This document shows positions 41,885 to 43,589 of a DNA stretch of 59,835 nt, piece after piece. This DNA comes from a phage. Positions within the stretch are counted from its first letter, which is position 1. Each line of letters begins with the position of its first letter. The notes beneath the pieces were generated by a model. That model was not told the DNA's origin and searched no databases. It saw nothing but the letters and a program-made list of their open reading frames with translations. Location of the stretch: sequence record PZ445421.1, one strand, 5' to 3'. The position numbers were made by a program, and so were the translations under genes.

Positions 41885-42490
41885 TTAAAATTTCTTACCG
41901 TGTTCCTGGGCGCGGTTCTCACGCTTATGGTCTGCACGGTTCGAGTTATATGCACGCTTGTCGCCCAGCGCCTGCTCCAGTGGCCAACCCCAGCCAACCG
42001 CCCAGTAAATCATATCCAGTGCGATAGCCAGCTCGAACGCTGCGATATCTAACGTTTCGTTATTATCTTCGTTGGAGTGAGGAACCTGCATAACCTGGTT
42101 CTTACGCACACCCTCCAACCCTGCGCTAATGTGCTCGTGCAGATCCGCATAATACTGATAGAAGTTTACATCCGTTTCAAACGCCGGCGGCGTGTCGTTA
42201 GCGCCTAAACGGTATACAGCGTCCAGCGCTTTCTCCAGATCCCACTTCTTATGACCGAAGAAGTCATAGATACGGATTGCAGCGTCCGCCAGCTCGACTA
42301 GCTGATTGGTGTATTGTGATAAGTGATCGTCCTTATCACCAGTCTTAAAACCAGTGTATGACTCAGATACTTCAGAATGGATCAGCGCGATTGTTGTACC
42401 GTCCGGACGCACTGGTTCATCCCACCAGCCGGCCTTGACATTGTGGTTATAGATTTCGTCGCGTAATACGTTGGGGTTTTCAATTTGCAT
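41885..42490 (-). CDS. hypothetical protein (possible NTP pyrophosphohydrolase-like)
   Basis: Track ORF to 42598; ATG 42490 with SD 'AGAGGA'; function guess is weak. Confidence 0.4.
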   Translation of the reverse strand: MQIENPNVLRDEIYNHNVKAGWWDEPVRPDGTTIALIHSEVSESYTGFKTGDKDDHLSQYTNQLVELADAAIRIYDFFGHKKWDLEKALDAVYRLGANDTPPAFETDVNFYQYYADLHEHISAGLEGVRKNQVMQVPHSNEDNNETLDIAAFELAIALDMIYWAVGWGWPLEQALGDKRAYNSNRADHKRENRAQEHGKKF

Positions 42491-42959
42491 GACCGTTCCT
42501 CTTGATGTACTCAATTGCATGGGCGCGAAAAAGCATCCGAAAATCTTCCAGGGATATTTCACATCTCGGAGGATCTTCTTTGTGATGTTTCGCTTCATCG
42601 GCGAAAAGCATGATAGGATTCATATACAGGACTACGCGCCAGGACTTTTTATTCTGACGGTACATAAGAACTGGAAACTTGTCTGCTTCCAATGCACTCT
42701 TAACACACTGCGCCCACCATGTGTTAATTGATATCTGCTCCTGTCGTTTAACTTCCACCGCATAGAAACAGGTATTTGTGATATCACAACCACCTACAGC
42801 ACTCTGATTCTGGTTACGTTGTGCTATGGGCTTTTCAGGATAAGTCATTCCAAGAGCGGCGTAAACTTCTTCGTAGATGTCATTAAAGAATTTACAAATT
42901 TCACGCTCACCTGTCTGACCTTTAGTACGAGGATTAGCTCCCATGTTATAAATCTCCAT
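42480..42959 (-). CDS. hypothetical protein (nuclease/resolvase-like guess)
   Basis: Track ORF to 43007 (starts within a G11 tract); internal ATG 42959; function uncertain. Confidence 0.4.
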   Translation of the reverse strand: MEIYNMGANPRTKGQTGEREICKFFNDIYEEVYAALGMTYPEKPIAQRNQNQSAVGGCDITNTCFYAVEVKRQEQISINTWWAQCVKSALEADKFPVLMYRQNKKSWRVVLYMNPIMLFADEAKHHKEDPPRCEISLEDFRMLFRAHAIEYIKRNGHAN

Positions 42960-42983
42960 CCAAAAAATAGAGGTACACAAGTA

Positions 42984-42994
42984 CCCCCCCCCCC
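42984..42994. repeat. homopolymer C11 (G11 on the minus strand)
   Basis: Read directly: gtaCCCCCCCCCCCgaaagc. Confidence 0.9.
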
Positions 42995-43135
42995 GAAAGC
43001 GAAGCATATAATAGATAATAACATGTCAGCGAGAGGCAGCCTTCGAAAAGGGGTAATCTACCAACCACTCTCGCAAATAATGTTAACCTGTTTACGTGTT
43101 TGATTACAATACACGAATTCGTCACAATTCACAGG

Positions 43136-43411
43136 TCATACCGTACATTTTTGCCAATGGCCCATAGAAAATGACAGCGAAGTGCAGACAACTTCCAGCC
43201 CGTTATCATCACGTACCACTGGCAAAGCTAGGCCGCTGCGGGCGTTATGTACAGTGCGGTGTACTCTATACACAGAGTTAGGCGTAAAGCGCCGCGTGTT
43301 CGCGTTTGTGCAGCGTAATAACGATCCGATATGTACAAGTGGAGCGGGCATAGTAAAGCCGATCATTAGATCCTTCTCTTTCTTATTAGGCTGGCGTACA
43401 GTTACATTCAT
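43136..43411 (-). CDS. hypothetical protein
   Basis: Track ORF to 43429; ATG 43411 with SD 'GAGGGGG'. Confidence 0.45.
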   Translation of the reverse strand: MNVTVRQPNKKEKDLMIGFTMPAPLVHIGSLLRCTNANTRRFTPNSVYRVHRTVHNARSGLALPVVRDDNGLEVVCTSLSFSMGHWQKCTV

Positions 43412-43589
43412 TGTGTCGTCCCCCCTCATTTAAAGATTCCAGGCGCTCACCTAACAAAATGAGCGATTTAATTTGATGCGGTTTCTTACCAAGATGTTCA
43501 GCAATGTGGTTATAAGTAAAACCTTTCTCCCGCATACGATAAGCAGTAATAGCGGCATTGCGATTGCGGATATCGGTTTTCTTACTCAT
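43386..43589 (-). CDS. small helix-turn-helix protein (putative transcriptional regulator)
   Basis: 67 aa; 'FTYNHIAEHLGKKPHQIKSLILLG' HTH-like. Confidence 0.45.
   Translation of the reverse strand: MSKKTDIRNRNAAITAYRMREKGFTYNHIAEHLGKKPHQIKSLILLGERLESLNEGGRHNECNCTPA

Follow-up and report, generated by a model that had tools for sequence, protein, structure and literature searches.

What is a run of eleven C residues doing in a compact phage genome, and does its length govern the gene that lies downstream of it? The window, by which we mean the whole 59,835-nucleotide stretch of DNA analyzed here, was identified by megablast as Escherichia phage FritzHoffmann (Bas20; Nonagvirus, Queuovirinae; GenBank MZ501068.1). 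The run stands on the plus strand in the context AAGTA-CCCCCCCCCCC-GAAAGC; the local genes are all on the minus strand, where it reads as G11. It is the sole G/C run of more than six nucleotides in the window, the next-longest being six, and a first-order Markov model predicts about 0.0009 C runs of eleven or more per window. The run noted in the initial annotation is thus confirmed by the sequence, is unusual, and lies far beyond chance expectation. That annotation had placed it either inside an N-terminal coding extension or in the 5' leader of a nuclease-like gene, and had proposed that changes in length would switch the start context or frame and give phase-variable expression, or that the run might be an assembly-error hotspot. 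As a whole this reading is partly supported: the unusual tract, its place in an intergenic 5' leader, and its character as a hotspot of uncertain length all stand, and the coding extension and the switch of frame or start context do not. The features on which the argument turns are collected in Table 1.

Table 1. Features of the FritzHoffmann locus, numbered from the first nucleotide of the window
Feature	Position	Strand	Basis
PD-(D/E)XK-type nuclease gene bas20_0049, 154 aa	42480..42944	-	annotation, PF24608, phrog_244, homologue starts
Shine-Dalgarno GGAG, 9 nt upstream of ATG 42944	42954..42957	-	sequence; invariant in alignment
Near-invariant non-coding block ending in the terminator, roughly 165 nt	42960..43125	-	alignment, pairwise diversity
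Predicted terminator U-tract, ATTTTTT on the coding strand	42962..42968	-	sequence, alignment, terminator scan; T5/T6/T7 among relatives
Predicted terminator stem-loop GGGGGTAC-TTGT-GTACCTCT, 8 pairs including 2 G-U	42969..42988	-	terminator scan (called at 42988..42969), folding, annotation of relatives
G11 homopolymer (C11 on the plus strand)	42984..42994	-	sequence, uniqueness, relatives with G5, C10 in MZ501068.1
Upstream gene, phrog_20894	43136..43429	-	ORF list, phrog match

By prediction, the G-run supplies the 5' arm of a Rho-independent terminator that is conserved among relatives. A scan tool called an intrinsic terminator at this position, and the predicted fold is a hairpin of four G-C, two A-U, and two G-U pairs with a UUGU loop and a folding energy of -11.0 kcal/mol. 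Stem and loop fall within the dimensions expected of intrinsic terminators (stem of at least 5 bp, loop of 3 to 8 nt), a U-rich tract follows immediately 3' of the stem, and the element lies between transcribed genes, on their strand, at a position that is conserved in relatives. It is annotated as a terminator in the records of phages HdSG1, HdK1, and SP8. The transcript of the upstream gene would run into it. Only the 3'-most five G (42984 to 42988) make up the 5' arm of the stem; the other six (42989 to 42994) are a lineage-specific expansion.

The history of the tract was read from relatives. The coding-strand intergenic region was aligned from 13 named Nonagvirus genomes, and the pattern TATGCTTCGCTTTC-N(3-25)-TACTTGTGTAC was scanned in IMG/VR, in JGI/ENA metagenomes, and in GTDB genomes. 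Together these gave 28 related records from about 22 distinct genomes, and in every one the arm is 5 nt long, within CGGGGGTAC-TTGT-GTACCCCC-TATTTTTT, or, spelled out, C-GGGGG-TAC-TTGT-GTA-CCCCC-TATTTTTT. The sole variants of the terminator in these relatives are TGGGG (SP8), C4 (HdK1), T5 (9g), and T7 (BRET). FritzHoffmann alone has G10 or G11 together with a 3' arm of CCTC instead of CCCCC, and the ancestral stem-loop has the form GGGGGTAC-TTGT-GTACCCCC. In the FritzHoffmann lineage, then, the ancestral G5 arm would have grown to about G10-G11, with replication slippage as the likely cause, and the C5 arm would have become CCTC by the loss of one C plus a C-to-T change. The 3' arm is predicted to pair with the last five G, which would leave the other six overhanging the 5' side of the stem. 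The single-base indels in the short C- and T-runs of the terminator (42962 to 42972; C4 in HdK1, T5 in 9g, and T7 in BRET) indicate that slippage at this hairpin recurs in the genus. We think it probable that slippage lengthened the G-arm of this conserved terminator in one lineage and that the resulting tract is functionally near-neutral. In kind it is an ordinary slippage product within a known type of element, an intrinsic terminator combined with a homopolymer indel hotspot.

A terminator in this place is not peculiar to Nonagvirus. In distant phages, too, a hairpin and a U-run precede the orthologous nuclease gene, with unrelated stems: GGGGCGC-TTCG-GTGCCC plus T7 directly before GGAG-ATG in Klebsiella phage vB_Kpn2-P2; TACCGCC-TAAG-GGCGGTA plus T7 directly before the gene start in Vibrio phage 83AMN; GACCTATC-TTCG-GATAGGTC plus T9 some 170 nt before the ATG (400-430 versus 601 in the locus) in Providencia PSTCR4; and AGCCCAGG...CCTGGGCT plus T6 some 75 nt upstream, with a promoter-like site after it, in Seuratvirus CAjan. 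A conserved internal terminator before the nuclease gene can thus be recognized across Queuovirinae-like phages. A blastn search for distant matches to the intergenic block itself returned Nonagvirus only. One contig, NZ_MPDK01000037.1 (10.9 kb), deposited as Sulfoacidibacillus thermotolerans Y002, is 93 to 96% identical to FritzHoffmann over 7.3 kb of the 8-kb locus; this coliphage-like contig is most likely a contamination of that assembly.

The RNA was folded as a nascent transcript ending with the 3' arm and, separately, with flanks or the full leader. The ancestral hairpin has a predicted energy of -15.7 kcal/mol, compared with -11.0 for FritzHoffmann and -12.1 for HdK1, which has the C4 arm. 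Tracts of every length between G5 and G14 are predicted to give the same 8-pair hairpin; the expansion alone leaves the hairpin unchanged because only the last five G pair. The weakening of the hairpin, by about 4.7 kcal/mol, would stem from the changes in the 3' arm and not from the expansion of the G-run, and a weaker terminator would probably allow somewhat more read-through into the nuclease, "dUTPase", and replication genes. The extra G are left unpaired or enter a small flanking helix with an upstream CUUCG, and each added G shifts the total energy by no more than 0.7 kcal/mol. When more downstream sequence was included, some folds joined extra G to the U-run by G-U pairs. Since some extra G pair with the U-tract or with CUUCG in full-leader folds, a modest effect of tract length on termination is possible. 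An upstream CCCC (43053 to 43050) was considered as an anti-terminator, and such pairing was not predicted by any fold.

The tract lies outside the nuclease gene. The initial annotation had begun that gene at ATG 42959, which lacks a Shine-Dalgarno sequence; the start is corrected to ATG 42944 by the genome annotation, by the GGAG motif, and by homologues from Klebsiella, Vibrio, Providencia, and Seuratvirus phages, which in tblastn align from residue 1 of the product. This ATG is 40 nt downstream of the last G of the tract, so the placement in the 5' leader is borne out. Because the Shine-Dalgarno sequence and the start codon are both downstream of the tract and the U-run, tract length changes neither, and a switch of frame or start context finds no footing. 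Nor does the N-terminal extension, which had been thought to encode RGGG. A frame beginning MLRFRGGG at ATG 43007 is open with G11 only, and with G10 it is out of frame; a stop codon stands immediately before the -15 ATG in 5 of 12 named relatives (BRET, PD328, JenP1, SE1, and ChristophMerian); and 1-nt indels in the C- and T-runs bring different upstream ATGs into frame in different phages, which is the pattern of non-coding sequence. No upstream reading frame is conserved.

The description of the downstream gene as nuclease-like holds. Its product matches PF24608 (PDDEXK_15) with an E value of 9e-14 and 52.1 bits against a cut-off of 27, it also matches phrog_244, and a D54...E64-V-K66 motif is readable in the translation; we assign it as a putative PDDEXK_15 family nuclease. 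The RefSeq label "RusA-like" was set aside, there being no match to the RusA Pfam family (PF05866), and a PDB sequence search and NCBIfam returned nothing for this protein. Beyond it, the gene annotated as a dUTPase (41885 to 42535, minus strand) has no Pfam match at E<0.01, and encodes 201 aa in FritzHoffmann versus 169 aa plus a separate 47-aa ORF in relatives. Nucleotide homology to the relatives breaks at about 42535, within the 3' end of the nuclease gene, and marks a mosaic junction.

A scan for sigma-70 promoters, run also with relaxed settings, turned up no convincing promoter either near the tract or downstream of it; CTGACA-15-TATGCT came closest, and two extended -10-like sites lie upstream. 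A role for the tract as a promoter spacer was dropped, as no promoter hexamers flank it. A gain or loss of one G would therefore alter neither a reading frame nor a promoter spacing, the tract being non-coding, free of flanking hexamers, and without predicted effect on the hairpin. An on/off switch by single-nucleotide steps is unsupported because the same 8-pair hairpin is predicted for 5 to 14 G, and the fixed 5-nt arm in about 22 relatives also speaks against phase-variable expression of this kind. A tract that is retained with variable length across relatives, as in contingency loci, is not what we see: 28 of 28 records have the 5-nt arm.

The length of the tract itself is 10 or 11. When MZ501068.1 was compared whole, after rotation by 520 nt to match the window, one base differed in the entire 59.8 kb, namely, C11 in the window versus C10 in the record. 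G/C runs of nine or more have a high slippage frequency, and NextSeq, a two-colour Illumina platform, reads G as the absence of signal; a G/C run of 10 to 11 is both slippage-prone and hard to call by two-colour Illumina sequencing, which would explain why the two deposits differ only at the tract. The idea of a length-uncertain hotspot is backed by this sole difference, although a polymorphism within the phage is here indistinguishable from base-calling error, that is, from homopolymer miscalling by NextSeq. For the BASEL genomes, reads came from an Illumina NextSeq 550 and assembly was done in Geneious, typically at 50-100x (PMC8594841). In a search for independent FritzHoffmann assemblies, an exact-protein look-up with the nuclease retrieved the GenBank record alone, and one with the upstream protein retrieved no record. 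The C10/C11 base is non-coding, so neither version of the genome alters a protein. We prefer to see the tract as a near-neutral hotspot for both mutation and sequencing rather than as a switch, and it is the single unstable or uncertain base in the reference of FritzHoffmann (Bas20), a widely used BASEL phage.

Several other explanations of the tract were weighed against this one. Tract length could act at the level of RNA if the terminator were a hypermutable attenuator, in which added or lost G retune read-through by G-U pairing with the U-tract or by an extra stacked helix; populations would then carry a heritable, reversible spread in the expression of downstream DNA-metabolism genes. The nuclease gene has no evident promoter between itself and the terminator, which would leave it dependent on read-through, the two deposits differ by one G, and the folds of longer leaders in which extra G pair with the U-run do grow more stable with length (-14.6 kcal/mol for G10, -15.3 for G11, and -15.7 for G12). 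These steps amount to at most 0.7 kcal/mol per added G, however, with the core hairpin unchanged; in the established model of intrinsic termination the U-tract sits in the RNA-DNA hybrid at that moment and is not free to pair; and about 22 relatives with a fixed G5 and no long tract argue against a conserved device. We regard such an attenuator as quite unlikely. We give still less credence to a bet-hedging terminator, at which slippage between G9 and G13 generates virulent-phage subpopulations that differ in read-through into the nuclease, nucleotide-metabolism, and replication operon. If tract length did tune read-through, this would be a rare hypermutable terminator in a lytic phage, which the evidence does not favour. 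Regulation at the level of translation, in which G11 frames ATG 43007 to give an N-terminally extended nuclease and G10 or G12 switches it off, seems to us scarcely credible: the ORF 42480..43007 is indeed open with G11, but it has no Shine-Dalgarno sequence before ATG 43007, it would have to be read through the terminator hairpin and the U-run, it is closed in the G10 version in GenBank and stop-blocked in five relatives, and homologues begin at the position of ATG 42944.

The alteration of both the 5' and the 3' arm in one lineage could hint at selection rather than drift. One proposal is that damage to the 3' arm (C5 to CCTC) came first and that a longer G-run was then selected because it restored stability or flexibility of register. 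With flanks included, the predicted energies fit such a course, at -12.8 kcal/mol for G5 with CCUC, -17.5 for G11 with CCUC, and -17.0 for the ancestral G5/C5 pair; the gain, however, arises in a flanking mini-helix and in G-U pairing with the U-tract, the terminator stem proper staying at -11, and the changes occurred in one lineage only, which provides neither replication nor an order of events. Compensation of this kind appears unlikely. It is very unlikely, finally, that the run is purely an artefact and that the true phage has the ancestral G5. NextSeq chemistry is known for poly-G artefacts, and the two deposits disagree on length; on the other hand, such artefacts occur at read ends and not inside a consensus, both versions have at least 10 G in mid-genome at 50-100x with flanks that match perfectly, and the adjoining 3' arm has independent changes. 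A near-neutral slippage expansion of the terminator arm thus remains the reading that we prefer.

The terminator forms the end of a conserved non-coding block (Table 1), in which pairwise diversity among about 18 distinct Nonagvirus genomes is 0.009 to 0.015, versus 0.037 to 0.05 in the flanking genes; it is the most conserved stretch of the locus. The block may serve as a regulatory leader or 3'UTR, or encode a small RNA; Rfam gave no family at gathering thresholds over the whole window, nor at E values up to 10 over 42850 to 43250. A long-range stem is predicted between 43019-43026 and 42942-42949 (CATGTTAT/ATAACATG) and between 43009-43014 and 42953-42960 (TCTATT/GGATGGAG), that is, CAUGUUAU and UCUAUU upstream of the terminator are predicted to pair with the downstream Shine-Dalgarno/AUG region. 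Such a stem would bracket the terminator and would sequester the Shine-Dalgarno sequence and start codon of the nuclease gene. A consensus fold of a 14-genome alignment contained no compensatory pairs, the bases of the long-range stem all being invariant and the sequences too similar for covariation. The two extended -10-like sites (43015 to 43023 and 43055 to 43063, minus strand; TGTTATTAT and TGGTAGATT) lie within the block and are matches to the consensus only; if active, they would start short transcripts that end at the terminator. A 24-aa ORF with a GTG start, bas20_0050, is annotated in the block (43058 to 43132, minus strand). Phage SP8 lacks this GTG owing to an HNH endonuclease insertion whose end coincides with the block's edge, so bas20_0050 is probably not a gene.

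The literature found on Bas20/FritzHoffmann covers host range and defence phenotypes only, with nothing on this locus or on Nonagvirus transcription or transcriptomes. Like the Rho-independent terminators of E. coli and its phages, the predicted element has a G+C-rich 8-bp stem, a 4-nt loop, and a run of six U, and is intergenic; unlike them, it has six surplus G before the stem and two G-U pairs. It also differs from terminators at the ends of operons in lying directly before a Shine-Dalgarno sequence with no promoter between, and would therefore work as an internal attenuator. Simple-sequence contingency loci with poly-G or poly-C tracts are familiar from Neisseria, Haemophilus, and Campylobacter, and Campylobacter phages carry poly-G tracts in receptor-binding genes. 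The FritzHoffmann run shares with such loci only a length, at 10 to 11, above the threshold at which they slip (about 8-9 or more G/C). The two records of this genome disagree on that length, which may reflect either slippage or miscalling; the run differs from such loci in lying outside any ORF and promoter spacer, in being G5 in all relatives, and in having no predicted on/off effect (for an overview of contingency loci, see PhasomeIt, PMC6321876). In the tlpB mRNA leader of Helicobacter pylori, a variable G-repeat is targeted by the small RNA RepG (PMC8295292). There, as here, a homopolymeric G-run lies in a 5' leader, where its length could in principle tune post-transcriptional control; the FritzHoffmann run, unlike that of tlpB, is a predicted terminator arm, is not conserved in the genus, and had no C/U-rich partner RNA that we could find. 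With these differences, the tlpB leader and RepG would be the nearest functional analogy for a G-run in a leader.
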